Shown: positions 10,281 through 57,761 of the stretch, in pieces
Numbering within the stretch: position 1 is the stretch's first letter
How the letters are laid out: each line of letters opens with the position of its first letter
Assembly: GCF_003334335.1 (NCBI RefSeq)
Contig: NZ_QOWQ01000019.1
Length of the DNA: 64,000 nucleotides
Reading direction: 5' to 3' (one strand)
Origin: Escherichia coli
GTDB lineage: Bacteria > Pseudomonadota > Gammaproteobacteria > Enterobacterales > Enterobacteriaceae
The notes under the pieces: generated by a model
The model's database searches: none
What the model was told of the DNA's origin: nothing
Seen by the model: the letters and a program-made list of their open reading frames with translations, nothing else
Made by a program: the position numbers and the translations under genes

Positions 10281-12326
10281 ATGCAGCAGTTAGCCAGTTT
10301 CTTATCCGGTACCTGGCAGTCTGGCCGGGGCCGTAGCCGTTTGATTCACCACGCTATTAGCGGCGAGGCGTTATGGGAAGTGACCAGTGAAGGTCTTGAT
10401 ATGGCGGCTGCCCGCCAGTTTGCCATTGAAAAAGGTGCCCCCGCCCTTCGCGCTATGACCTTTATCGAACGTGCGGCGATGCTTAAAGCGGTCGCTAAAC
10501 ATCTGCTGAGTGAAAAAGAGCGTTTCTATGCTCTTTCTGCGCAAACAGGCGCAACGCGGGCAGACAGTTGGGTTGATATTGAAGGTGGCATTGGGACGTT
10601 ATTTACTTACGCCAGCCTCGGTAGCCGGGAGCTGCCTGACGATACGCTGTGGCCGGAAGATGAATTGATCCCCTTATCGAAAGAAGGTGGATTTGCCGCG
10701 CGCCATTTACTGACCTCAAAGTCAGGCGTGGCAGTGCATATTAACGCCTTTAACTTCCCCTGCTGGGGAATGCTGGAAAAGCTGGCACCAACGTGGCTGG
10801 GCGGAATGCCAGCCATCATCAAACCAGCTACCGCGACGGCCCAACTGACTCAGGCGATGGTGAAATCAATTGTCGATAGTGGTCTTGTTCCCGAAGGCGC
10901 AATTAGTCTGATCTGCGGTAGTGCTGGCGACTTGTTGGATCATCTGGACAGCCAGGATGTGGTGACTTTCACGGGGTCAGCGGCGACCGGACAGATGCTG
11001 CGAGTTCAGCCAAATATCGTCGCCAAATCTATCCCCTTCACTATGGAAGCTGATTCCCTGAACTGCTGCGTACTGGGCGAAGATGTCACCCCGGATCAAC
11101 CGGAGTTTGCGCTGTTTATTCGTGAAGTTGTGCGTGAGATGACCACAAAAGCCGGGCAAAAATGTACGGCAATCCGGCGGATTATTGTGCCGCAGGCATT
11201 GGTTAATGCTGTCAGTGATGCTCTGGTTGCGCGATTACAGAAAGTCGTGGTCGGTGATCCTGCTCAGGAAGGCGTGAAAATGGGCGCACTGGTAAATGCT
11301 GAGCAGCGTGCCGATGTGCAGGAAAAAGTGAACATATTGCTGGCTGCAGGATGCGAGATTCGCCTCGGTGGTCAGGCGGATTTATCTGCTGCGGGTGCCT
11401 TCTTCCCGCCAACCTTATTGTACTGTCCGCAGCCGGATGAAACACCGGCGGTACATGCAACAGAAGCCTTTGGCCCTGTCGCAACGCTGATGCCAGCACA
11501 AAACCAGCGACATGCTCTGCAACTGGCTTGTGCAGGCGGCGGTAGCCTTGCGGGAACGCTGGTGACGGCTGATCCGCAAATTGCGCGTCAGTTTATTGCC
11601 GACGCGGCACGTACGCATGGGCGAATTCAGATCCTCAATGAAGAGTCGGCAAAAGAATCCACCGGGCATGGCTCCCCACTGCCACAACTGGTACATGGTG
11701 GGCCTGGTCGCGCAGGAGGCGGTGAAGAATTAGGCGGTTTACGAGCGGTGAAACATTACATGCAGCGAACCGCTGTTCAGGGTAGTCCGACGATGCTTGC
11801 CGCTATCAGTAAACAGTGGGTGCGCGGTGCGAAAGTCGAAGAAGATCGTATTCATCCGTTCCGCAAATATTTTGAGGAGCTACAACCAGGCGACAGCCTG
11901 TTGACTCCCCGCCGCACAATGACAGAGGCCGATATTGTTAACTTTGCTTGCCTCAGCGGCGATCATTTCTATGCACATATGGATAAGATTGCTGCTGCCG
12001 AATCTATTTTCGGTGAGCGGGTGGTGCATGGGTATTTTGTGCTTTCTGCGGCTGCGGGTCTGTTTGTCGATGCCGGTGTCGGTCCGGTCATTGCTAACTA
12101 CGGGCTGGAAAGCTTGCGTTTTATCGACCCCGTAAAGCCAGGCGATACCATCCAGGTGCGTCTCACCTGTAAGCGCAAGACGCTGAAAAAACAGCGTAGC
12201 GCAGAAGAAAAACCAACAGGTGTGGTGGAATGGGCTGTAGAGGTATTCAATCAGCATCAAACCCCGGTGGCGCTGTATTCAATTCTGACGCTGGTGGCCA
12301 GGCAGCACGGTGATTTTGTCGATTAA
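10281..12326 (+). CDS. paaZ: PaaZ, bifunctional oxepin-CoA hydrolase / 3-oxo-5,6-dehydrosuberyl-CoA semialdehyde dehydrogenase
   Basis: The 681-aa ORF has an aldehyde-dehydrogenase N-terminal domain and a MaoC-like hotdog C-terminal domain and matches PaaZ. Confidence 0.9.
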
Positions 12327-12338
12327 TCGGTGAATGAA

Positions 12339-12365
12339 GGGCAACGGCGAATAGTTGCCCTTTTA
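12339..12365 (+). terminator. Intrinsic terminator after paaZ
   Basis: Hairpin gggcaac...gttgccc (12339-12360) followed by tttt. Confidence 0.6.
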
Positions 12366-12573
12366 TTTCACTAAGTTTTGTGACGTTGTCACATTATGCA
12401 TGATGTGTACATCTATTTTCAGGGCATCCACTGTATGAAAAGCTGGCACACCTGCCAAACAACCTGGCAGGTGCAGGCAATCCCCTTTGCATCAGTACTG
12501 ATAATGTGAACCTGACTAAACCGCCCACAGAGCGCGGTTGCTAACAAGAACACAACATCTGACGAGGTTAATA

Positions 12574-14847
12574 ATGGGAAGCCCCTCTCTGTATTCTGCC
12601 CGTAAAACAACCCTGGCGTTGGCAGTCGCCTTAAGTTTCGCCTGGCAAGCGCCGGTATTTGCCCACGGTGGTGAAGCGCATATGGTGCCAATGGATAAAA
12701 CGCTTAAAGAATTTGGTGCCGATGTGCAGTGGGACGACTACGCCCAGCTCTTTACCCTGATTAAAGATGGCGCGTACGTGAAAGTGAAGCCTGGTGCGCA
12801 AACAGCAATTGTTAATGGTCAGCCTCTGGCACTGCAAGTACCGGTAGTGATGAAAGACAATAAAGCCTGGGTTTCTGACACCTTTATTAACGATGTTTTC
12901 CAGTCCGGGCTGGATCAAACCTTTCAGGTAGAAAAGCGCCCTCACCCACTTAATGCGCTAACTGCGGACGAAATTAAACAGGCCGTTGAAATTGTTAAAG
13001 CTTCCGCGGACTTCAAACCCAATACCCGTTTTACTGAGATCTCCCTGCTACCGCCAGATAAAGAAGCTGTCTGGGCGTTTGCGCTGGAAAACAAACCGGT
13101 TGACCAGCCGCGCAAAGCCGACGTCATTATGCTCGACGGCAAACATATCATCGAAGCGGTGGTGGATCTGCAAAACAACAAACTGCTCTCCTGGCAACCC
13201 ATTAAAGACGCCCACGGTATGGTGTTGCTGGATGATTTCGCCAGTGTGCAGAACATTATTAACAACAGTGAAGAATTTGCCGCTGCCGTGAAGAAACGCG
13301 GTATTACTGATGCGAAAAAAGTGATTACCACGCCGCTGACCGTAGGTTATTTCGATGGTAAAGATGGCCTGAAACAAGATGCCCGGTTGCTCAAAGTCAT
13401 CAGCTATCTTGATGTCGGTGATGGCAACTACTGGGCACATCCCATCGAAAACCTGGTGGCGGTCGTTGATTTAGAACAGAAAAAAATCGTTAAGATTGAA
13501 GAAGGTCCGGTAGTTCCGGTGCCAATGACCGCACGCCCATTTGATGGCCGTGACCGCGTTGCTCCGGCAGTTAAGCCTATGCAAATCATTGAACCTGAAG
13601 GTAAAAATTACACCATTACTGGCGATATGATTCACTGGCGGAACTGGGATTTTCACCTCAGCATGAACTCTCGCGTCGGGCCGATGATCTCCACCGTGAC
13701 TTATAACGACAATGGCACCAAACGCAAAGTCATGTACGAAGGTTCTCTCGGCGGCATGATTGTGCCTTACGGTGATCCTGATATTGGCTGGTACTTTAAA
13801 GCGTATCTGGACTCTGGTGACTACGGTATGGGCACGCTAACCTCACCAATTGCTCGTGGTAAAGATGCCCCGTCTAACGCAGTGCTCCTTAATGAAACCA
13901 TCGCCGACTACACTGGCGTGCCGATGGAGATCCCTCGCGCTATCGCGGTATTTGAACGTTATGCCGGGCCGGAGTATAAGCATCAGGAAATGGGCCAGCC
14001 CAACGTCAGTACCGAACGCCGGGAGTTAGTGGTGCGCTGGATCAGTACAGTGGGTAACTATGACTACATTTTTGACTGGATCTTCCATGAAAACGGCACT
14101 ATTGGCATCGATGCCGGTGCTACGGGCATCGAAGCGGTGAAAGGTGTTAAAGCGAAAACCATGCACGATGAGACGGCGAAAGATGACACGCGCTACGGCA
14201 CGCTTATCGATCACAATATCGTGGGTACTACACACCAACATATTTATAATTTCCGCCTCGATCTGGATGTAGATGGCGAGAATAACAGCCTGGTGGCGAT
14301 GGACCCAGTGGTAAAACCGAATACTGCCGGTGGCCCACGCACCAGTACCATGCAAGTTAATCAGTACAACATCGGCAATGAACAGGATGCCGCACAGAAA
14401 TTTGATCCGGGCACGATTCGTCTGTTGAGTAACCCGAACAAAGAGAACCGCATGGGCAATCCGGTTTCCTATCAAATTATTCCTTATGCAGGTGGTACTC
14501 ACCCGGTAGCAAAAGGTGCCCAGTTCGCGCCGGACGAGTGGATCTATCATCGTTTAAGCTTTATGGACAAGCAGCTCTGGGTAACGCGTTATCATCCTGG
14601 CGAGCGTTTCCCGGAAGGCAAATATCCGAACCGTTCTACTCATGACACCGGTCTTGGACAATACAGTAAGGATAACGAGTCGCTGGACAACACCGACGCC
14701 GTTGTCTGGATGACCACCGGCACCACACATGTGGCCCGCGCCGAAGAGTGGCCGATTATGCCGACCGAATGGGTACATACTCTGCTGAAACCATGGAACT
14801 TCTTTGACGAAACGCCAACGCTAGGGGCGCTGAAGAAAGATAAGTGA
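12574..14847 (+). CDS. tynA: TynA, periplasmic copper/topaquinone primary amine oxidase
   Basis: The ORF matches TynA, with signal peptide MGSPSLYSARKTTLALAVALSFAWQAPVFA. I placed the start at the internal Met that gives 757 aa; the longest ORF begins at 12538. Confidence 0.9.
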   Translation: MGSPSLYSARKTTLALAVALSFAWQAPVFAHGGEAHMVPMDKTLKEFGADVQWDDYAQLFTLIKDGAYVKVKPGAQTAIVNGQPLALQVPVVMKDNKAWVSDTFINDVFQSGLDQTFQVEKRPHPLNALTADEIKQAVEIVKASADFKPNTRFTEISLLPPDKEAVWAFALENKPVDQPRKADVIMLDGKHIIEAVVDLQNNKLLSWQPIKDAHGMVLLDDFASVQNIINNSEEFAAAVKKRGITDAKKVITTPLTVGYFDGKDGLKQDARLLKVISYLDVGDGNYWAHPIENLVAVVDLEQKKIVKIEEGPVVPVPMTARPFDGRDRVAPAVKPMQIIEPEGKNYTITGDMIHWRNWDFHLSMNSRVGPMISTVTYNDNGTKRKVMYEGSLGGMIVPYGDPDIGWYFKAYLDSGDYGMGTLTSPIARGKDAPSNAVLLNETIADYTGVPMEIPRAIAVFERYAGPEYKHQEMGQPNVSTERRELVVRWISTVGNYDYIFDWIFHENGTIGIDAGATGIEAVKGVKAKTMHDETAKDDTRYGTLIDHNIVGTTHQHIYNFRLDLDVDGENNSLVAMDPVVKPNTAGGPRTSTMQVNQYNIGNEQDAAQKFDPGTIRLLSNPNKENRMGNPVSYQIIPYAGGTHPVAKGAQFAPDEWIYHRLSFMDKQLWVTRYHPGERFPEGKYPNRSTHDTGLGQYSKDNESLDNTDAVVWMTTGTTHVARAEEWPIMPTEWVHTLLKPWNFFDETPTLGALKKDK

Positions 14848-14858
14848 TTGTTTCAGAC

Positions 14859-14887
14859 AAAAAAACGGCACCAGGTGCCGTTTTTTA
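14859..14887. terminator. Bidirectional intrinsic terminator between convergent tynA and feaB
   Basis: aaaaaaa-cggcacc-aggtgccg-tttttt: a hairpin flanked by an A-run and a T-run. Confidence 0.7.
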
Positions 14888-14904
14888 CTTATGAGCGAAC
14901 CAGA

Positions 14905-16404
14905 TTAATACCGTACACACACCGACTTAGTTTCACACCAACCGTCCAGCCAGTCGGGGCCAAAATCACGGCCCGTTCCTGACTGCTTCATCCCACCAAA
15001 CGGTAAGTTAGCGTCAATTAAGGTATGGCTGTTTACCCACACCGTCCCTGCCTGTAAGCGATCGCTATATTCCAGAGCCTGGGAGAGATTTTGCGTCCAG
15101 ACACTGGCAGTTAAGCCATATTCCGTGTCGTTTGCCAGTTGTAACGCCTCTTCTCCATCCGCTACTCGCACCAGGTTTACCACCGGACCAAACACCTCTT
15201 CACGAGTTAAGCGCAATTTAGCATCGGGATTTACCACCAGCGTTGGCGCAACATAATACCCCTCTCCGGCTGGTCCATTCGACCCGCGAATCAGCTCTGC
15301 TTGCTGTGCCTGCGCATCGTCGAGGAATGAACACACTTTGTCGCAGTGCGCACGAGAAACCAAAGGGTTAATCTGTGCAACAGGTGACATCCCCGGTCCC
15401 ACTTGCAACGATTTTACCGCCTGCTCAAATCCACTAACCAGCGTGTCAAACAACGGCGCTTCAATATAAATTCGCGAACTGGCGGCGCATACTTGCCCTT
15501 GATTCAGGAAGCTTCCGGTCATCAAGCCTTCAATAACCCATTGCGGATCAGCATCTTTTAATACAATTGCCGGGTTTTTACCGCCCAGTTCCAGCGTTAC
15601 ACGCGTTAAGTGATCAGCAGCAGTTCTGGCAATACCTTTTCCCGTCGCGGTTGAACCGGTAAAACTGATTTTCGCAACATGAGGATGTGACGTCAGGGCC
15701 GCGCCGCATACAGCACCTGACCCGGTGACGACATTAAAAACGCCATCAGGGATACCAGCCTCGCTGGCCAGTTCCGCCACGCGCAACATCGTCAGTGGCG
15801 TGGTTTCCGAAGGCTTAATCACGATTGAACAGCCTGCTGCCAGTGCTGGCATCACCTTCCACATACCAATCATCAACGGAAAGTTCCATGGCACAATTCC
15901 CGCCACTACGCCAACCGGCTCTTTACGCGTCCAGGCCTGATAACGCGCCCCCTGGGGTAAGGGAATCGACAAGTCCAGCGTTTTACCCGCGATTTTGGTC
16001 GTTAACCCGGCGGTATAACGCATCCAGTTCAGCGTACAGCCCACTTCAAAAGCACGGGAAATGGCAATTGACTTGCCTTGCTCCAGGGTTTCCAGTTGCG
16101 CCAGCTCCTCACTGTGCTGCTCCACCAGATCAGCAAAACGTAGCAGAATACGTTCACGCTCTGCGGGTAATCGCCCGGCCCAGCGACGCGAGACAAAGGC
16201 CCGCCAGGCAGACATGACTGCGTTATCTACATCCGCTTCGTTGGCATCAGCAGTAGACGCAATTTCTTGCCCGGTGGCCGGATCAAAGATCGCCAACCGT
16301 TTTTCACTTTGTGCGGGGCCAGGACGACCATCAATATAAAGACCGTGTTGACGATCGAGAAACTGTTGGACCTGGCTTAATACTGCTACATGCGGCTCTG
16401 TCAT
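14905..16404 (-). CDS. feaB: FeaB, phenylacetaldehyde dehydrogenase
   Basis: The 499-aa aldehyde-dehydrogenase-family ORF ([26 protein letters not shown]...) matches FeaB and sits next to feaR and tynA. Confidence 0.9.
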
Positions 16405-27029: not shown

Positions 27030-28163
27030 ATGAAAAGCAAAGTACTGGCACTTTTAATTCCTGCCCTGCTCGCCGCAGGTGCTGCACATGCAGCCGAAGT
27101 TTATAATAAAGACGGCAACAAATTAGATCTGTATGGCAAAGTTGATGGCCTGCATTATTTTTCTGATAATTCAGCGAAAGATGGCGACCAGAGCTATGCG
27201 CGTCTGGGTTTTAAAGGCGAAACCCAAATTAACGATCAACTCACTGGCTACGGTCAATGGGAATACAATATTCAGGCAAACAACACTGAATCTTCAAAAA
27301 ACCAGTCATGGACCCGTCTGGCATTTGCCGGGCTGAAATTTGCAGATTACGGTTCTTTCGATTACGGACGTAATTATGGCGTAATGTACGACATCGAAGG
27401 CTGGACCGATATGCTGCCTGAATTTGGCGGTGACTCTTATACCAATGCAGACAACTTTATGACTGGTCGAGCCAATGGCGTCGCGACTTATCGTAATACT
27501 GATTTCTTCGGTCTGGTAAATGGTCTGAACTTCGCGGTGCAGTATCAAGGTAACAACGAAGGAGCCAGTAATGGTCAGGAAGGCACCAACAACGGACGTG
27601 ATGTTCGCCATGAAAACGGTGACGGCTGGGGTCTTTCCACAACATATGATTTAGGCATGGGCTTTAGCGCTGGTGCGGCATACACCTCTTCTGACCGCAC
27701 CAATGACCAGGTTAACCATACTGCGGCGGGTGGTGATAAAGCAGACGCGTGGACTGCTGGGCTAAAATACGATGCTAACAATATTTACCTGGCAACCATG
27801 TATTCAGAAACGCGTAATATGACCCCGTTTGGCGACAGCGATTATGCTGTGGCAAACAAAACCCAGAATTTTGAAGTCACTGCACAGTACCAGTTTGATT
27901 TTGGTCTGCGTCCGGCAGTCTCTTTCCTGATGTCTAAAGGCCGTGACCTGCACGCTGCGGGTGGTGCAGACAACCCGGCAGGTGTTGATGATAAAGATCT
28001 GGTTAAATACGCCGATATTGGCGCGACTTACTATTTCAATAAAAACATGTCCACCTACGTTGACTATAAAATCAACCTGTTGGATGAAGATGACAGCTTC
28101 TACGCTGCCAATGGCATCTCTACCGATGATATTGTCGCTTTAGGTCTGGTTTATCAGTTCTAA
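27030..28163 (+). CDS. ompN: OmpN, OmpC/OmpF-family general porin
   Basis: 377-aa ORF with signal peptide [21 protein letters not shown] and a porin C-terminus ending LVYQF. Confidence 0.9.
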
Positions 28164-28222: not shown

Positions 28223-28738
<516 letters not shown>

Positions 28739-28745
28739 CACTAAC

Positions 28746-28771
28746 GCCCGCACATTGCTGCGGGCTTTTTG
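28746..28771 (+). terminator. Intrinsic terminator after uspF
   Basis: gcccgca-cattgc-tgcgggc followed by ttttt. Confidence 0.7.
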
Positions 28772-28914
28772 ATTCATTTCGCAAATGTGCTGACATTTTC
28801 CCCTCTAATCCGTACCATACACGCCACAGTTTTTTATATCAGATTTCTTATGCTGGGCGTTCCGGCATGACGCATACTCTTCTGATGCCATATAACGAAT
28901 TGAGTCGCTTTTAA

Positions 28915-29850
28915 ATGTCGCAAAATCAAGAAATTAGTAAGAAAGAACAATACAACCTGAACAAATTACAAAAACGTCTGCGTCGTAACGTGGGCGAAGC
29001 CATTGCTGACTTCAATATGATTGAAGAAGGCGATCGCATCATGGTTTGCCTCTCCGGGGGTAAAGACAGCTATACCATGCTGGAGATTCTGCGCAATTTG
29101 CAGCAAAGCGCGCCAATCAATTTTTCGCTGGTGGCTGTTAACCTCGATCAAAAGCAACCGGGCTTCCCGGAACACGTTCTGCCCGAGTATCTTGAAAAGC
29201 TGGGCGTTGAGTACAAGATTGTTGAAGAGAATACTTACGGTATCGTGAAAGAGAAGATTCCAGAGGGCAAAACCACTTGCTCACTGTGTTCTCGCCTTCG
29301 TCGCGGTATCCTTTATCGTACCGCAACGGAACTGGGGGCGACGAAGATCGCGTTGGGTCACCATCGTGACGATATCCTGCAAACGTTGTTCTTAAATATG
29401 TTCTACGGCGGTAAGATGAAAGGTATGCCTCCGAAACTGATGAGCGATGATGGCAAACATATCGTTATTCGTCCGCTGGCCTACTGCCGCGAGAAAGATA
29501 TTCAGCGATTTGCCGATGCAAAAGCGTTCCCGATTATTCCGTGCAACCTGTGCGGTTCACAGCCTAACCTGCAACGTCAGGTGATTGCTGACATGTTGCG
29601 TGACTGGGATAAACGTTATCCAGGGCGTATCGAGACGATGTTCAGCGCGATGCAGAATGTGGTGCCGTCGCATCTGTGCGATACCAACCTGTTCGATTTC
29701 AAAGGCATCACCCACGGTTCTGAAGTGGTTAACGGGGGTGATCTGGCGTTTGATCGCGAAGAGATCCCACTACAACCGGCGTGCTGGCAGCCAGAAGAAG
29801 ATGAAAATCAGTTGGATGAGTTACGGCTGAATGTGGTTGAAGTGAAATAA
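28915..29850 (+). CDS. ttcA: TtcA, tRNA 2-thiocytidine(32) synthetase
   Basis: 311-aa ORF with PP-loop SGGKDS and CxxC motifs. Its N-terminus ([17 protein letters not shown]) differs from the K-12 TtcA N-terminus as I recall it ([17 protein letters not shown]). Confidence 0.9.
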
Positions 29851-29858
29851 CCAGGATA

Positions 29859-29932
29859 GCGCCCGATGCGCAAGCGTATCGGGCTACTCTTATGGAGGCC
29901 GGATAAGACGCGGCCAGCGTCGCATCCGGCAA
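29859..29932. repeat. REP (repetitive extragenic palindromic) elements between ttcA and dbpA
   Basis: Two imperfect palindromes of REP type: gcccgatgcgcaagcgtatcgggc and gccggataagacgcggccagcgtcgcatccggc. Confidence 0.7.
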
Positions 29933-29978
29933 TCCCGAATAAGATGTTTACTCTTGCACCCGGCAATTCAACATTTCA

Positions 29979-43240: not shown

Positions 43241-43498
43241 TTACTGCTCTTCGCCGCCAAGGAAATAAATTCCCAACGGGATTGCCAGCAACACAGTAAA
43301 GACCAGGCTATAAACAAAAATCATCGATGACTGAATCACATACATTGATGTCGTCCACTCAGACAGCGGAATATTGTACTGTTCTATAACGCCGCCGATG
43401 GTCGCGCGAGTCACAACCGACGCCGCAATAATGAAAACCGCCAACAAACCAAAGAGAAATTTCTTCCCTTTCGCTGACTTCAGTTTCGCCATAATCAT
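43241..43498 (-). CDS. ynaJ: YnaJ, small inner-membrane protein (DUF2534)
   Basis: 85-aa ORF with two predicted transmembrane segments. Confidence 0.75.
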   Translation of the reverse strand: MIMAKLKSAKGKKFLFGLLAVFIIAASVVTRATIGGVIEQYNIPLSEWTTSMYVIQSSMIFVYSLVFTVLLAIPLGIYFLGGEEQ

Positions 43499-43741
43499 GA
43501 TGTAATCCTTGTGCAGACAAATTTCTTGTTACCTAAACGTAACAATACCATGACATTTCACCGTTGTCTGCTCTGAAAACCTCACCTCTTAGCTGGATTT
43601 ACAATCAACGCATTGATTAGTTAGCTAATGTTGCTACTTCCTTCCCTGACTATTGATGATCTGAATGAATTGTCGCGGTAAAATAGCCCCGCCAGGGGTT
43701 TCCGGCATGACGACAATTATCTGGAGGAGCCTGATAAAACA

Positions 43742-44773
43742 ATGATCGCTGAACTGTTTACAAATAATGCGCTTAATCTGGTCATTATTTTCGGTAGCTG
43801 CGCAGCATTGATTCTGATGAGCTTTTGGTTTCGCCGTGGAAATCGTAAAAGAAAAGGATTTTTATTCCATGCGGTGCAATTTTTAATCTACACCATAATT
43901 ATCAGTGCTGTTGGTAGCATTATTAATTATGTTATAGAAAACTATAAACTCAAATTTATCACCCCAGGCGTTATCGATTTTATCTGTACGTCCCTGATTG
44001 CGGTTATTCTGACGATTAAGCTATTTCTGCTGATTAATCAGTTTGAAAAACAGCAGATTAAAAAAGGTCGCGATATCACCAGTGCGCGGATTATGTCGCG
44101 TATCATCAAAATCACCATTATTGTGGTGCTTGTTCTGCTTTATGGCGAACATTTCGGCATGAGCCTTTCTGGCTTGCTGACCTTTGGTGGTATTGGTGGT
44201 CTGGCTGTCGGTATGGCCGGTAAAGATATTCTGAGTAACTTCTTTTCCGGGATTATGCTCTATTTCGACCGTCCTTTCAGTATTGGCGACTGGATCCGTT
44301 CACCGGACAGAAATATCGAAGGTACAGTAGCGGAAATTGGCTGGCGAATTACCAAAATTACGACCTTTGATAATCGTCCATTGTACGTACCGAACTCGCT
44401 GTTTTCGTCGATCAGCGTAGAAAACCCAGGACGAATGACCAACCGCCGCATTACCACGACCATTGGTTTACGTTATGAGGATGCGGCAAAAGTGGGCGTT
44501 ATTGTCGAAGCTGTACGTGAGATGCTGAAAAATCACCCGGCCATCGACCAGCGACAAACCTTACTGGTTTATTTCAACCAGTTTGCTGACTCTTCATTGA
44601 ATATTATGGTTTATTGCTTTACCAAAACCACGGTATGGGCTGAATGGCTTGCTGCACAGCAAGACGTTTATTTGAAGATTATCGATATTGTACAGTCACA
44701 CGGCGCGGACTTTGCCTTCCCCAGCCAGACGCTGTATATGGATAACATTACACCGCCGGAACAGGGTCGCTAA
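43742..44773 (+). CDS. ynaI: YnaI, MscS-family mechanosensitive channel
   Basis: 343-aa ORF with N-terminal transmembrane helices and an MscS beta-domain. Confidence 0.85.
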
Positions 44774-49794: not shown

Positions 49795-50744
<950 letters not shown>

Positions 50745-50852
50745 TGTTGTCGCGGTGGTCTGCGGATTAAGCGCAAATAGCGTTTGCTGTGTTATTGACA
50801 GTTAGCATAAACTAGGTGTGACGTTAACTATATGTAAACAGGAAAGATAATC

Positions 50853-51359
50853 ATGTCACAAACCGTTCATTTCCAGGGCAACCCGGTTACAGTCGCCAAT
50901 TCCATCCCGCAGGCGGGTAGCAAAGCGCAGACTTTTACTCTCGTGGCAAAAGATCTGTCTGACGTCACCCTCGGTCAGTTTGCGGGTAAACGCAAAGTGC
51001 TGAACATTTTCCCGAGTATTGATACCGGTGTTTGCGCCGCATCAGTACGTAAGTTTAACCAACTGGCAACTGAGATCGACAACACCGTTGTGCTGTGTAT
51101 CTCTGCCGATCTGCCGTTCGCCCAGTCTCGTTTCTGCGGCGCAGAAGGTCTGAACAACGTTATCACCCTCTCCACTTTCCGTAACGCTGAATTTCTGCAA
51201 GCTTACGGTGTGGCAATTGCTGATGGCCCACTGAAAGGTCTGGCAGCGCGTGCCGTTGTGGTTATTGACGAAAATGACAATGTGATTTTCAGCCAGCTGG
51301 TGGATGAAATCACCACCGAGCCGGATTACGAAGCAGCTCTGGCTGTACTGAAAGCATAA
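50853..51359 (+). CDS. tpx: Tpx, thiol peroxidase
   Basis: 168-aa [41 protein letters not shown]... with the peroxidatic Cys in the conserved DTGVCA context. Confidence 0.95.
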
Positions 51360-51363
51360 TTTA

Positions 51364-51396
51364 ATATGCCTGATGGTGTTGCACCATCAGGCATAT
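51364..51396. terminator. 15-bp-stem palindrome between convergent tpx and tyrR (putative bidirectional terminator)
   Basis: atatgcctgatggtg-ttg-caccatcaggcatat, immediately after the tpx stop. Confidence 0.4.
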
Positions 51397-51402
51397 TCGC
51401 GC

Positions 51403-52944
51403 TTACTCTTCGTTCTTCTTCTGACTCAGACCATATTCCCGCAACTTATTGGCAATCGCGGTATGTGAAACGCCGAGACGTTTTGCCAGTTTGCGCGTGC
51501 TGGGATAATTGCGATAAAGCTGGGTTAATACCGAGCGTTCAAAACGGCTGGTGATTTCGTCCAGCGAACCTTCCATCGCATCTTCGCCCACGGCTACCGT
51601 TGCGGCGTCATAATCCGGCAACAAAATATCCTGTGGACGCAGCTCATAACCGTCCAGTTGTGTCAGTGCGCGATAGATAGCGTTCTTTAACTGCCGCACA
51701 TTTCCCGGCCACGCATAACGCGTAAGTACAGTATTCAGGTCAGCGGCCAGTTTCGGACGCGGCACGCCCTGCTCGTCGGCAAAGCGGGCGACGAACAGCT
51801 CAGTTAACGGCATGATGTCCTGCGGACAGTCACGTAGCGGCGGCAGATTGAGCGTCAACACGTTCAGACGATAATAGAGATCTTCACGGAACATGCCTTT
51901 TTGCACCAGTTCGACCAGATTCTTCTGCGTAGCGCAAATCACCCGCACATCGACATGCACCTCATGGTCTTCGCCAACCCGACGGAAAGTGCCATCATTA
52001 AGGAAACGCAGTAATTTCGCCTGCATCCGTGGTGACATTTCCCCTATTTCATCCAACAGCACCGAACCACCGTTCGCCTGCTCAAAGAATCCTTTCTTCC
52101 CTTCCGGAGCATGACCAAACAGTTCACTCTCGACCGCATCTTCCGGTATAGACGCACAGTTCAGCGCCAGGTAAGGTTTGCCCGCTCTGGGGCTTGCCTG
52201 ATGGCAGGCGTAGGCAAAGAGATCTTTACCTGTACCTGTGTCACCCGTAATCAGCAGCGGCGCGCTTAGCATCGCCAGTTTCTGCGCCTGTTCGACAACA
52301 TGCTTCATTTTCGGGCTGACGGCGACAATTTGACTGAAGGCGCTGACGTCCTGGGCGGCGACATTTTGCAACTGGCGGCCCATACGAATCGTTGATCGCA
52401 ACATCACCACCGCACCGGTCAGGACGTGTTGATCATTTTCATCCTGAAGATAAACAGGCGTAATCTCCATCAGGAAATTCTGCCCATTAATAACGACATG
52501 CTCGTTATGCGAATCTTGCGGTTCGCTTTCCAGCCAACGTAAAAAATTAAAGCCGTTAATCAATTGTGCGGCGGTATGGTTGCGCAGGCGATCCAATTTT
52601 TGCCCAAAAAGCTGACAGCTCGCCGGGTTCGCCATATCCACTTTGCTTTTCATATCGACAGAGAGCACAGGTTCAGGCAACGCCTCCAGTAACGCGCTCA
52701 ACGCCAGATGCTCACGTTCGGAAGGCATCCACGGGACAGTACGCACATCGGTAACACCCGCAATACGGCGTATTTCGGCCATCAGACTGCTGAAACTCTC
52801 AAACTCCAGTTCAGCAAAATTGAGGTAGATTCGCCCAATGGGATCAATCTCAATACCGCGTAAATCAATGCCTCTTAGCACGAGTAGATCGAGTAATTCG
52901 CGGGTCAGACCGAGTCGGTCTTCACAAAAGACTTCCAGACGCAT
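51403..52944 (-). CDS. tyrR: TyrR, aromatic amino-acid regulon transcriptional regulator
   Basis: 513-aa ORF with ACT/PAS, sigma-54-type AAA+ (GDTGTGKD) and C-terminal helix-turn-helix domains, from the internal Met MRLEVFCEDRLGL. Confidence 0.95.
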   Translation of the reverse strand: MRLEVFCEDRLGLTRELLDLLVLRGIDLRGIEIDPIGRIYLNFAELEFESFSSLMAEIRRIAGVTDVRTVPWMPSEREHLALSALLEALPEPVLSVDMKSKVDMANPASCQLFGQKLDRLRNHTAAQLINGFNFLRWLESEPQDSHNEHVVINGQNFLMEITPVYLQDENDQHVLTGAVVMLRSTIRMGRQLQNVAAQDVSAFSQIVAVSPKMKHVVEQAQKLAMLSAPLLITGDTGTGKDLFAYACHQASPRAGKPYLALNCASIPEDAVESELFGHAPEGKKGFFEQANGGSVLLDEIGEMSPRMQAKLLRFLNDGTFRRVGEDHEVHVDVRVICATQKNLVELVQKGMFREDLYYRLNVLTLNLPPLRDCPQDIMPLTELFVARFADEQGVPRPKLAADLNTVLTRYAWPGNVRQLKNAIYRALTQLDGYELRPQDILLPDYDAATVAVGEDAMEGSLDEITSRFERSVLTQLYRNYPSTRKLAKRLGVSHTAIANKLREYGLSQKKNEE

Positions 52945-53091
52945 GGGAACCTTCACCTGAAAAAAGAACAATTAATATGATGATATGACACTATTTGGAT
53001 AGCAGGAAGGTTTCTGTCAACAATCATTGACACAAAGACGGAAAAACGGGCACTTCGGCGTAAAGATATCCGGTCAGCACCCGATATTGCA

Positions 53092-54153
53092 TTATTTTTC
53101 GCTGGGCGTTTTGCCTTTTTGCAGCGTTTCTTTCACCTGACCGATAAGCTGACGACGGAAATCCCCGAGGCGAGGTTTGTCATCGTCAATCCACGGCAGC
53201 GGGCGGCAAAGCTCCATAGCTTTAATCCCGAGTCGTGCCGTCAGAAGTCCTGCACCAATCCCCTGAGCTGCGCGGGTAGACAAACGAGCAGCGAGATCTT
53301 GCGACATCCAGTCCATCCCCACTTCGCGCACCAGTTCGCTGGCTCCGGCAAAAGCGATATTCAGCAATACCAGCTTAAACAGACGCAAACGGCTGTAATA
53401 CCCCAGTTCAATGCCATACAGCGTGGCGATGCGATTAATTAAACGCAGATTGCGCCAGGCGATAAACGCCATATCGACCAACGCCAGCGGGCTGACCGCA
53501 ATCATCAACGTTGATTCCGCCGCCGAACGGCTGATTTCGCGCCGCGCCTGGGCATCTAAAACTGGCTGGACCAAATGCGCATACAGGCTGACCACTTCAC
53601 GGTCGTTTTGCGTTTCATGGATTGAGGCATACCAGCGTTGCAGCGCCGGATGCGACTGATCAATACCCGCCTGCTGCGCCAGTTTTTCGCAAAATGCGCG
53701 GCCTTTGCCCGTGCCGTGGCTATGCAATAAATCACGCGCTTCGTCGCGTTCATGGGCGCGCTGTCGCAAGCGCCATAAGCGCCGCCACTCTGTTACCACA
53801 GAACCTACGCCAGCGCCGATAATCAATGCCCCAGCGGCACATCCACCCAGCGCCACCCAGTCCTGGGTTTGCCAGGCATTCATTGTCCACTGTACACCCT
53901 GCCCGACAACGCTTGCGCCAAACAGAGCCAGCCCTCCCATCACCATTTTGCGCCACAGGCTGCGTTTCGGACGTAACGCTGCGTCCATTACCGCTTCGAC
54001 TTGCCCCTCTTCTTCCTGCGCTTCGTCGAGCGTGGCCGGGGCAAAATTTTGCGCCTGATTTTCGTCAAAGGTCTGCTGCGCCCTGAATTTAGGATTCTGA
54101 TCGACCTCCAGAGGACCGTCGAAATCAATACGTGGTTTTAACGGTTCGGTCAT
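53092..54153 (-). CDS. ycjF: YcjF, inner-membrane protein (DUF697)
   Basis: 353-aa ORF; its start overlaps the ycjX stop. Confidence 0.8.
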
Positions 54154-55547
54154 CGCAATTTATCTCCTATTAAAAATTCCAGCGCAGCATCAAGACGAAT
54201 ATGCGGTAGTGGTTTGTCGACATCCATCACCTGCGGACGAAATGCCTCAAACTGGAAGCCTTGCTTATCCCAGAACGCCTGACCAGGCAAACGTGCGGGA
54301 ACTTCGCCAGGATAAACAGTGAGCGGTGCGCCATCGCTAAGTCGATTACCACGCAGCGCCGGGATTTTCTCACCGTTAACATCAATAATGCCGCTGGTGG
54401 TCGCCTGAACTGACGCCAGCCCCAGGCAGTCCATGCTGATCCCTTCGAACGCCGCATTTTGCCAGGCATCCTGAATCAGTTGTTGCAGTAATGAAACCAT
54501 ATTAGCGTGCTGATCGATGGTCACATGGTCCGCTTTAGTGGCAGCAAACAATAGCTTATCGATAACCGGCGAAAACAAACGCCGGAACAGGGTACGCTGC
54601 CCGTAGTGAAAACTTTGCATCAGCTGCGTCAGTGCCAGACGCATATCATTAAATGCCTGTGGCCCACTGTTGAGAGGTTGCAGGCAATCCACCAGCACAA
54701 TCTGGCGGTCAAAGCGCAGAAAATGATTCTTATAGAACCCCTTCACCACCTTCTCGCAGTAATAATTAAAGCGCTCGCGCAGCATTCCGGCATTGGTATG
54801 CTTATCGGCCTGCGCCAGTTTGGACTCGCCCCAGGTATCGACATCCGGCCACGGGAAGAATTGCAGCGCGGGCGCACCTGCCATATCTCCCGGCAAGACA
54901 AAGCGCCCAGGCTGAATAAAGTGCAGCCCCTGCTCTTTACAGTGGTGGAGATAATCGGTCCACGCGGCGGCAATGTCCGCCAGCCGGTTTTCGTCGGCAG
55001 GCGCTAGCGGGTCCAGCCCTTCGCTCATCATTCGCCATTTCGCCGACCATTCTCCGCGCTGACCATTGAGTAAGCCCGTCATCTGGCGCGACCAGCTTAA
55101 ATAGTCCTGCGCCAGCATCGGCAGGTCGAGCAACCATTCGCCGGGATAATCCACAATTTCCAGATACAGCGTGGAGGTATCCTTAAAGTGGCGTAGCAGC
55201 GAATCATTCGATTTAAAACGTAGCGCCAGGCGGATTTCACTGACGCCGCGCGTTGGCGTTGGCCAGGCGGGTGGATCGCCATATAACTGCGCCAGCCCTT
55301 CGTCATAGGTGAAGCGCGGAATGCCAAAGTCACGCTGGGGAATGCGTTTCACGCCCAGCAGGCGCTCTTCACGCACCGCACTTAACAGCGGCAAACGTGC
55401 TCCGGCGTGAATATTAAGCAACTGATTAACCATCGCGGTGATAAACGCTGTTTTGCCGCTGCGGCTAAGTCCGGTTACAGCGAGGCGCAGATGTCTGTCG
55501 ACACCCCGATTCACCAGCGCATTGAGTTCATTTTTAAGTCGCTTCAT
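54150..55547 (-). CDS. ycjX: YcjX, P-loop NTPase (DUF463)
   Basis: 465-aa ORF with Walker A motif GLSRSGKT. Confidence 0.8.
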
Positions 55548-55702
55548 TGCTGTCCTGTGCTGCTCTGAAGACCAGAAAAAAAATCATTCGTAAGGATATG
55601 AATGTGGGGGCCAGGCCATTGATTATCAACTGCCCGTGTTGTCATCGACCGGCGAACTCCATAAGATGTGCAGCATTCACGTTCGGACGGAGTTCCTGAC
55701 CT

Positions 55703-56701
55703 ATGTCCCCTACTATTTATGATATTGCCAGGGTTGCAGGCGTATCAAAATCCACCGTATCACGCGTGCTGAATAAGCAAACTAATATCTCCCCGGAAGC
55801 GCGCGAAAAAGTGTTACGGGCCATTGAAGAATTACAGTATCAGCCAAACAAGCTGGCCCGCGCGCTGACCTCTTCGGGTTTTGATGCCATTATGGTGATT
55901 TCTACCCGTTCGACCAAAACTACGGCGGGTAATCCGTTTTTCTCTGAAGTTTTGCATGCCATCACCGCCAAAGCTGAAGAAGAAGGTTTCGACGTGATAT
56001 TACAAACGTCGCACAATCCGGCAGAAGATCTGCAAAAATGCGAAAGCAAAATTAAGCAGAAAATGATTAAAGGCATTATTATGCTCAGTTCGCCAGCGGA
56101 TGAGTCATTTTTTGCCCAACTCGATAAATATGATATTCCGGTGGTGGTGATTGGCAAAGTTGAAGGTCAATATGCCCATGTTTATTCTGTCGATACCGAT
56201 AATTTTGGCGACAGCATTGCGTTGACCGATGCATTAATTGAAAGTGGGCATCAAAATATTGCCTGCCTGCATGCTCCGCTTGATGTCCATGTTTCGGTTG
56301 ATCGCGTTAATGGTTATAAGCAGAGCCTGGCTGCGCATAATATTGCAGTGCGTGATGAATGGATTGTTGATGGCGGTTATACCCATGAAACTGCATTAAA
56401 AGCAGCACGGCAATTATTAAGCCAGTCACCGTTGCCTGAGGCGGTGTTTGCCACTGACAGCCTGAAATTAATGAGCATTTATCGTGCGGCAGCAGAGAAA
56501 AATATTGCTATTCCGCAGCAGTTAGCGGTGGTGGGTTATAGCAATGAAACGCTGTCATTTATTTTAACGCCTGCACCGGGCGGCATCGATGTTCCGACGC
56601 AGGAGTTAGGTCAACAAAGCTGCGAGTTATTATTCCGCTTAATTTCTGGAAAACCGTCACCACAGAATATTACCGTTGCCACGCATATGACGCTGAAATA
56701 A
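55703..56701 (+). CDS. ycjW: YcjW, LacI-family transcriptional regulator
   Basis: 332-aa ORF with N-terminal LacI helix-turn-helix ([20 protein letters not shown]). Confidence 0.85.
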
Positions 56702-56716
56702 ATACCAGCTACCTTG

Positions 56717-56800
56717 CCTGAATGCCAGATGCGATGCTAGCGCATCTTATCCGGCCTACATTTATAGATCGGATAAAGTACTCGCGCCGCATCCGGCAAT
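56717..56800. repeat. REP elements between ycjW and ompG
   Basis: gcctgaatgccagatgcgatgctagcgcatcttatccggcctaca and a second cgcgccgcatccggcaat unit, of typical REP type. Confidence 0.65.
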
Positions 56801-56811
56801 TTAGCCCATTA

Positions 56812-57717
56812 TCAGAACGAGTAATTTACGCCGACACCTGCATAATGGAATTTATCACTGTCGCCTTCGTCGTGATCCTGCCACTCAAACGCGTATTCCA
56901 GCGAAACGGAAAGTCCGTTCTGGAAATCATAACCGTAAAATAAACCTACACGGTTAAAATCATGGCCTTCACGTTCAATATCATCCTGCCAGTCCCAGTT
57001 ACTCCAGCGATCCAGCCCAATGCGCGTATACGGCGTCACCGAGTGGTTGCCGAGCGTCAGCGGCAAATAGGCGCGAATTTCTTGCGTGGAAAACTCACCG
57101 TTATTGCGGCTGTCGTCCATATTGAAGCCGCGCTCGAGATAATAGTTCACTCGCAAGGCAACCGTTTCGTTGAAGGTATATTGCAGACCTGTTTCCGTTT
57201 CGACACGGGTATCAGCGTAACCGGTAGTGTTCAGATCGTTGGCAAATTTATACATCGACAACCAACCGTTGAAACGTAAATCGTCAGTCAGTTTCACATC
57301 CCAGTCTGGCGCGATTTTCCAGCGCTGCATATTCGCCGTGTCTTTACCCGGTTCATCAACGTAGTGATAACCATAATTACGGAAACCGCCGGTCAGGCCG
57401 AAACTGAAATCATCGTTTTCGAGGAACTGATAATGCACCTCCAGCTCCGGGCGATCAAACCACGTTCCACGTTTACCCGCGCTATAATCTACCGGCCCTT
57501 CCTGATAATAGGCCAGAGCAATTCTCCACGGCCCGTTGGCGGCATTAAAATAGACTGAAGGCTCCGCCAGCCCATCCATATCTTCGCCATAACCCTCGAC
57601 GTTTTCTATTTCGTACATCGCGCCGATATTAAAGTGCCAGTCGTTCCTTTCCTCGGCCTGTGCGCAGGCCATTCCCGCACACATCACCAGTGCGGTACAG
57701 GGTAATAACTTTTTCAT
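56812..57717 (-). CDS. ompG: OmpG, monomeric outer-membrane porin
   Basis: 301-aa ORF with signal peptide MKKLLPCTALVMCAGMACA and a beta-barrel C-terminus ending YSF. Confidence 0.9.
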   Translation of the reverse strand: MKKLLPCTALVMCAGMACAQAEERNDWHFNIGAMYEIENVEGYGEDMDGLAEPSVYFNAANGPWRIALAYYQEGPVDYSAGKRGTWFDRPELEVHYQFLENDDFSFGLTGGFRNYGYHYVDEPGKDTANMQRWKIAPDWDVKLTDDLRFNGWLSMYKFANDLNTTGYADTRVETETGLQYTFNETVALRVNYYLERGFNMDDSRNNGEFSTQEIRAYLPLTLGNHSVTPYTRIGLDRWSNWDWQDDIEREGHDFNRVGLFYGYDFQNGLSVSLEYAFEWQDHDEGDSDKFHYAGVGVNYSF

Positions 57718-57761
57718 TATTGTTCCTTGTATTATCCTGGGGGAATGCCTTCCCCCTGTAT

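Follow-up and report, generated by a model that had tools for sequence, protein, structure and literature searches.

Mobile-element sites in a K-12-like segment of the Escherichia coli core chromosome

Given that the divergent ynaJ-ynaI spacer of this E. coli contig contains no insertion, we considered whether the DNA around it is free of mobile elements, whether its arrangement is older than that of K-12, and whether any of it provides the setting of a defence system. The original prediction, made from the letters of the window (the whole stretch of 64,000 nucleotides analysed here), held that no mobile element lies anywhere in it, that the arrangement is more ancestral than in K-12, and that nothing supports an undescribed system. 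It also stated that this region of K-12 carries Rac and IS copies, which is correct: in MG1655, the homologous interval contains IS5F, IS2D, IS30C and Rac, the last with IS5Y inside it. The features on which the following account relies are collected in Table 1.

Table 1. Positions of the features in the window.
Feature	Position	Strand	Remark
Right end of IS1414 (IS256 family), running off the left window edge	1-77	+	77/77 identical to the LR-64-2 copy
TGAGTTGC, backbone abutting the IS end, presumed 8-bp target-site copy	78-85		right junction alone in the window
ydbA autotransporter gene, broken	193-5859	-	ORFs 5497-5859 and 193-5463 remain
paaA'-'paaK in-frame fusion ORF, 727 aa	7813-9996	-	left by a 7,326-bp deletion of paaB-paaJ
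ttcA, intact, with native (TtcA') N-terminus	28915-29850	+	from comparison with K-12 attL and attR
REP (repetitive extragenic palindrome), ttcA-dbpA	~29895-29935
ynaJ	43241-43498	-
ynaJ-ynaI divergent intergenic spacer	43499-43741 (243 bp)		nothing inserted
ynaI	43742-44773	+
REP/BIME pair, ycjW-ompG	56720-56806

Collinearity with K-12 and lesions in coding regions

We aligned the window to MG1655 positions 1,372,000-1,478,000, together with their annotation. Local megablast placed window positions 78-64000 in collinearity with MG1655 1,474,128-1,375,665, in reverse orientation, and MG1655 tiled this span at 99.96-100% identity with gaps only at the K-12 IS5F, Rac, IS2D and IS30C or at paaB-J. 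Point differences from MG1655 numbered 14 in the ~58 kb of aligned backbone, a count from which the repeat-rich middle of ydbA was left out. From position 78 onward, the alignment left no block without a K-12 counterpart, and there is thus no insertion relative to the K-12 backbone from that position on. Furthermore, all parts of the window found matches at 99-100% identity when 5,426 complete E. coli genomes were searched by megablast, and natural isolates from pig, dog, human and seawater were 100.0% identical over 25001-50000 and 50001-64000, each in one piece.

The window spans from part of ycjQ to the pdxI-ydbA spacer. From left to right, its genes are ydbA, paaY, paaX, the paaA-paaK remnant, paaZ, tynA, feaB, feaR, ydbL, ynbE, ydbH, ldhA, hslJ, ydbJ, ydbK (nifJ), MicC, ompN, uspF, ttcA, dbpA, FnrS, zntB, dgcM, smrA, McaS, abgRABT, ogt, fnr, uspE, ynaJ, ynaI, mppA, pgrR, ycjY, mpaA, ycjG, tpx, tyrR, ycjF, ycjX, ycjW, ompG, ycjV, ycjU, ycjT, ycjS, ycjR and part of ycjQ. 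Rfam identified FnrS, MicC and McaS as the only sRNAs, and no tRNA genes were found in the window. Gene content, gene order and these three sRNAs are as in MG1655 1,375,665-1,474,128 (ycjQ to ydbA). Missing relative to MG1655 are IS5F, IS2D, IS30C, paaB-J and Rac together with its IS5Y. Conversely, ycjV is intact, ttcA encodes the TtcA' N-terminus, ydbA shows a 103-bp deletion and a 1-bp insertion, and an IS1414 end lies between pdxI and ydbA. Nothing about this region is unusual or new; it is well-characterised E. coli core chromosome. As a whole, the window is best explained, and with high probability, as core chromosomal DNA of a natural E. coli of phylogroup A, very closely related to K-12.

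Three loci, apart from the sites of mobile DNA, differ from MG1655. The ycjV gene (57762-58844) is intact here, whereas MG1655 has a 1-bp deletion at window position 57885 that splits it into the ycjV and ymjB pseudogenes. In ydbA, a 103-bp deletion is followed 165 bp downstream by the 1-bp insertion, and an in-frame TAA results; the 120-aa N-terminal fragment is recorded in eight independent contigs, so the lesion is real. An exact-sequence look-up returned no record of the 1,756-aa ydbA ORF. The paa deletion has its junction at 9121/9122, with an overlap of only 2 bases between the flanking alignments, and the resulting ORF joins PaaA residues 1-291 to PaaK residues 3-437 in frame. In the fusion, NCBIfam models matched residues 7-293 (PaaA) and 301-722 (PaaK). 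Of the 5,426 complete genomes, 5 have the same junction, which also occurs in several draft or Logan contigs. The PaaA-PaaK fusion, common to a small wild lineage, might be expressed from the paaA promoter as a chimeric phenylacetate-CoA ligase.

Unoccupied IS sites and the IS1414 end

The alignment blocks of the window abut, or overlap by a few bases, exactly at the K-12 mobile DNA. Within the ynaJ-ynaI spacer, the target that IS5F occupies in K-12 is a single, unoccupied TTAG at 43621-43624, and the blocks overlap there. In K-12, IS5F occupies 1,396,044-1,397,238 with TTAG on both sides; in window orientation, the ynaJ-side junction reads ...GATTAGTTAG and then directly the IS5 end, and on the ynaI side the other IS5 end is followed by TTAGCTAATG. 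An IS5 copy, that is, a 1.2-kb element with a duplicated YTAR tetranucleotide, was not found in the spacer, which contains one TTAG and measures 243 bp. The second spacer that had been described as short, between uspF and ttcA, measures 176 bp (28739-28914). A promoter scan gave no match to the sigma-70 consensus in the ynaJ-ynaI spacer, a result that is uninformative on promoters. In ydbA, the sites of IS2D (3738-3742, 5-bp overlap) and IS30C (3688-3690, 3-bp overlap) are likewise empty. The sequences duplicated in K-12 are therefore single here: TTAG for IS5F, 5 bp for IS2D and 2-3 bp for IS30C.

Precise excision of an IS is rare. Moreover, the ynaJ-ynaI junction was unbroken in 5,055 of the 5,426 complete genomes, across all identity bands, a count that, like the one for ttcA below, includes genomes in which small insertions of up to ~900 bp were joined into one place (e.g. 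IS1 in H40 and H70). Because the targets are single, precise excision is rare and the ynaJ-ynaI junction is so widely unbroken, an ancestral arrangement at the three backbone IS sites (IS5F, IS2D and IS30C) is well supported and very probably correct, and we infer that these sites were never occupied, as opposed to precisely excised. The window would represent the state of the interval before the K-12 lineage acquired IS5F, IS2D and IS30C, and positions 43499-43741 are simply a divergent spacer around an unoccupied IS5 target site, with no element and no system inside. The more ancestral arrangement that had been proposed thus stands for these three sites; for Rac it is plausible only.

At the left edge of the window, the claim that no mobile element is present has to be narrowed. 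No complete mobile-element gene was found and nothing is inserted in 78-64000, but an IS1414 end occupies positions 1-77. These bases match the last 77 bp of a 1,315-bp IS1414 copy in strain LR-64-2 at 77/77 positions. Positions 2-43 hold the last 13 codons of the transposase (FIIEFGDRLDGHF) and its stop; these residues equal the C-terminal end of the transposase in LR-64-2, and they are all of an IS256-family transposase that is visible in the window itself. The right terminal inverted repeat occupies positions 49-77, ends in ...CAGGCTC and is identical to the reference copy. In the LR-64-2 copy, the two 29-bp ends match at 21/29 positions; the left inverted repeat of IS1414 reads GAGCCTGTACATAG.... 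With a score of 426 bits, the 402-aa transposase ORF of that copy, in which an astA (EAST1) ORF is embedded, passed the cut-off of 150 of NCBIfam NF033543 (IS256 family transposase). IS1414 has been described in the same terms (PMC12585946, citing McVeigh et al. 2000), as an IS256-family element with the EAST1 toxin gene astA inside the transposase gene. The window differs from a full IS1414 in holding only these last 77 bp; astA, the left end and the target duplication lie beyond the edge.

Searches of the E. coli genomes with window positions 1-300 identified the first 77 bases as a dispersed repeat, found at as many as 22 places in one genome and at 370 on plasmids, the other 223 bases of the query being single-copy backbone. 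Such a multi-copy distribution over chromosomes and plasmids is that expected of an IS1414/IS256-family element, and the genomic matches to the first 77 bases underlie genes annotated as 'IS256-like element IS1414 family transposase'. A similar IS1414-like copy is contained in phage 2B8 (72-base match). The top genome matches for the left end all begin at window position 78, and the exact junction of IS1414 with TGAGTTGC was found in no complete RefSeq genome. The empty site in K-12 reads ...CTGGATGAGTTGCTCTATTGTCC..., and LR-64-2 and AF58 carry a 1,315-bp IS1414 in the same pdxI-ydbA spacer, 10 bp further on and with the 8-bp duplication TATTGTCC. Since the insertion point here is 10 bp from the LR-64-2 site, the window IS1414 is an independent insertion. 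The pdxI-ydbA spacer has been hit by IS1414 at least twice.

Short-read assemblies typically break at multi-copy IS. In the draft NCBI assembly GCA_012531195.1, one contig matches window 80-15859 at 100% identity and stops at position 80 of the window, a break that is as expected if a multi-copy IS lies there. We infer that the IS1414 copy at the window edge is complete. Its 77-bp right end, from an independent insertion in the pdxI-ydbA spacer that the window edge cuts, is the sole transposable-element DNA of the strain in the window.

Two other origins were weighed, one for the IS end and one for the window as a whole. Bases 1-77 might be a solo IS1414 remnant or an assembly join instead of the end of a complete active element, given that only 77 bp are visible and that many IS1414 copies are decayed according to a published survey (PMC12585946). 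However, they are identical to a copy that is apparently intact, having both its terminal repeats and a transposase ORF of 402 aa, and their junction with the backbone coincides exactly with the IS terminus. An independent draft assembly breaks its contig at the same junction, as a multi-copy repeat would cause it to do; we therefore consider a remnant or a join unlikely. Far less credible still is an origin in a reduced-genome strain, that is, a derivative of K-12 engineered to be free of IS or prophages. Such a strain would share the near-identity to MG1655 and the clean absence of all K-12 mobile elements of the interval, but not the 14 point differences, the ycjV gene that is frameshifted in K-12, the IS1414 end at a site empty in MG1655, the 100% identity of natural isolates over 39 kb, or the paa deletion and ydbA frameshift common to wild isolates and to draft assemblies from independent samples. 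On the point differences, the intact ycjV, the IS1414 end and the deletions common to wild isolates, an engineered IS-free K-12 origin was ruled out, and the natural, K-12-like core chromosome is retained as the source of the window.

The Rac attachment site in ttcA

The attB core of Rac and Rac-like lambdoid prophages (K-12 Rac, Sp10, CP-933R and Rac-SA53) and their host flanks, ttcA and uspF, are present in the window. K-12 Rac (1,411,942-1,434,958, including IS5Y) is absent, and the alignment junction falls at 28922-28964, inside ttcA. The unoccupied attB core for Rac-like phages is a 26-bp sequence at 28939-28964, AAGAAAGAACAATACAACCTGAACAA, which occurs in one copy inside ttcA and equals the attP annotated in phage Rac-SA53. 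A Rac-like prophage at ttcA was not found: no ORF in the window belongs to an intR or integrase family, and the core is not duplicated as attL and attR. In contrast to the sites occupied by Rac-like prophages, the window thus has one core copy, no intR and the native 5' end of ttcA. The N-terminus of its product reads MSQNQEIS..., compared with MQENQQIT... in K-12, and these four residue differences match exactly the TtcA' form. Liu et al. 2015 (PMC4632033) observed that form in strains lacking Rac-like prophages as well as upon excision of Rac, and called it the ancient copy.

Three phage records (Rac-SA53, 683R6 and SPF_0923) have an end of their match at window position 28922 or 28964. Among the complete genomes, the ttcA junction was unbroken in 2,489 of 5,426 (46%, spanning 98-100% identity), and most genomes with a broken junction split at 28922-28964, which marks this as a heavily used integration site. 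Three close relatives with the same rare paaB-J deletion were checked; LR-29-1 and GDSC2BY4G have a prophage at ttcA and EC416 has none. Occupancy of the ttcA site varies within a very tight lineage. The prophage of LR-29-1 is Rac-like, with a fuller set of tail genes than K-12 Rac and an IS1 inside its tape-measure gene. For GDSC2BY4G, the evidence of a prophage is the break at the att core only.

It is plausible that the Rac site was never occupied in the ancestry of this strain. The empty ttcA could instead be secondary, an ancestral Rac-like prophage having been lost by IntR/XisR-mediated precise excision that regenerated attB and the TtcA' N-terminus, a history that we regard as possible if somewhat doubtful. 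In favour of loss, K-12, only 14 point differences away, has Rac, and occupancy is mixed among the carriers of the paaB-J deletion; furthermore, K-12 Rac is excision-proficient, and its integrase-mediated (IntR/XisR) excision restores exactly the TtcA' sequence seen here (Liu et al. 2015, PMC4632033). Set against this are the 46% of complete genomes, over the 98-100% identity range, in which the site is unbroken, and the recurrent use of the site as an integration target, so that independent gains in the relatives are equally possible; neither history predicts a scar. Because excision restores the same sequence, a never-occupied and a precisely excised Rac site are indistinguishable, and with mixed occupancy among relatives and scarless excision, recent gain in the relatives and recent loss here are both possible.

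Mobile-element scans, defence context and implications

Profile searches for IS and prophage genes, which had been proposed as a check, were performed against PHROGs with 50 proteins and ORFs of the window, and they detected no integrase, transposase, recombinase, capsid, tail or lysis family. Consistent with this and with the K-12 tiling, the absence of a transposase, integrase or recombinase ORF that had been noted was borne out in that no complete one is present in the window. Intergenic DNA amounts to 7,022 bp in total, and its longest stretch, which contains ynaJ, is 550 bp, leaving no room for an overlooked transposase or integrase gene. The PHROGs matches that were obtained belong to generic host-type families. 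Those to ttcA, uspF, ompN and smrA were rejected as a prophage signal, being full-length matches to host genes; for ttcA, uspF (28232-28738) and ompN (27030-28163), they were strong (e.g. phrog_27769 at 738 bits). The four matches most likely arose because host flanks of prophage records entered the library; ttcA, uspF and ompN are host genes that flank Rac-like prophages. When the whole window was compared by megablast with 50,697 phage records, the 72-base IS1414-like stretch was matched, and all other matches were to 'phage' records that align to host backbone alone. Several 'phage' GenBank records thus likewise contain this host DNA, and three of them stop at the att core.

Repeat searches gave a similar picture. 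As had been stated for terminal inverted repeats, the inverted-repeat search found no convincing pair; the candidate pairs were rejected as IS ends, being weak (73-85% complementary) and flanking no transposase gene. It also found a single perfect terminator hairpin, which follows feaR. Against the E. coli genomes, 25001-50000 and 50001-64000 matched a median of 1 and a maximum of 4 places per genome, which leaves no IS-sized dispersed repeat in 25001-64000. No ERIC/IRU repeats were found in the window with up to 3 mismatches allowed. REP/BIME sequences are the only dispersed-repeat family in the window besides the IS1414 end.

A PADLOC search of 50 proteins identified no defence island or anti-phage system in the window; the genes matched are scattered, lack partner genes and share generic domains only. 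DbpA was rejected as BrxH, Cas3 or DpdF on account of the shared generic DEAD-box helicase core, DgcM as Cas10 on account of the GGDEF domain, TyrR as RtcR on account of its AAA+ and HTH domains, and YcjV as mad3 on account of its ABC ATPase domain. DbpA, DgcM, TyrR and YcjV are well-characterised housekeeping genes. Since the gene content does not exceed that of K-12, nothing here gives a defence-island context, in support of the original prediction, whose further view that an undescribed system is not supported agrees with the lack of accessory cargo and defence context in the window.

For the search for new systems, this means that neither mobile elements nor a defence island gives reason to look for one in this window, which hides no accessory cargo. 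The host-gene PHROGs entries near the Rac site are a trap for automated prophage finders. The IS1414 copy, in the part beyond the window edge, could carry astA (EAST1), which would be of interest to strain typing. We also consider, tentatively, that the strain could represent a 'pre-K-12' backbone, natural and near-isogenic, in which the paaA'-'paaK fusion is perhaps an expressed chimera and not dead DNA; if true, this would be a curiosity of lineage history and physiology and not a new system. For the E. coli chromosome itself, the analysis records how four sites that bear insertions in K-12 look when unoccupied.
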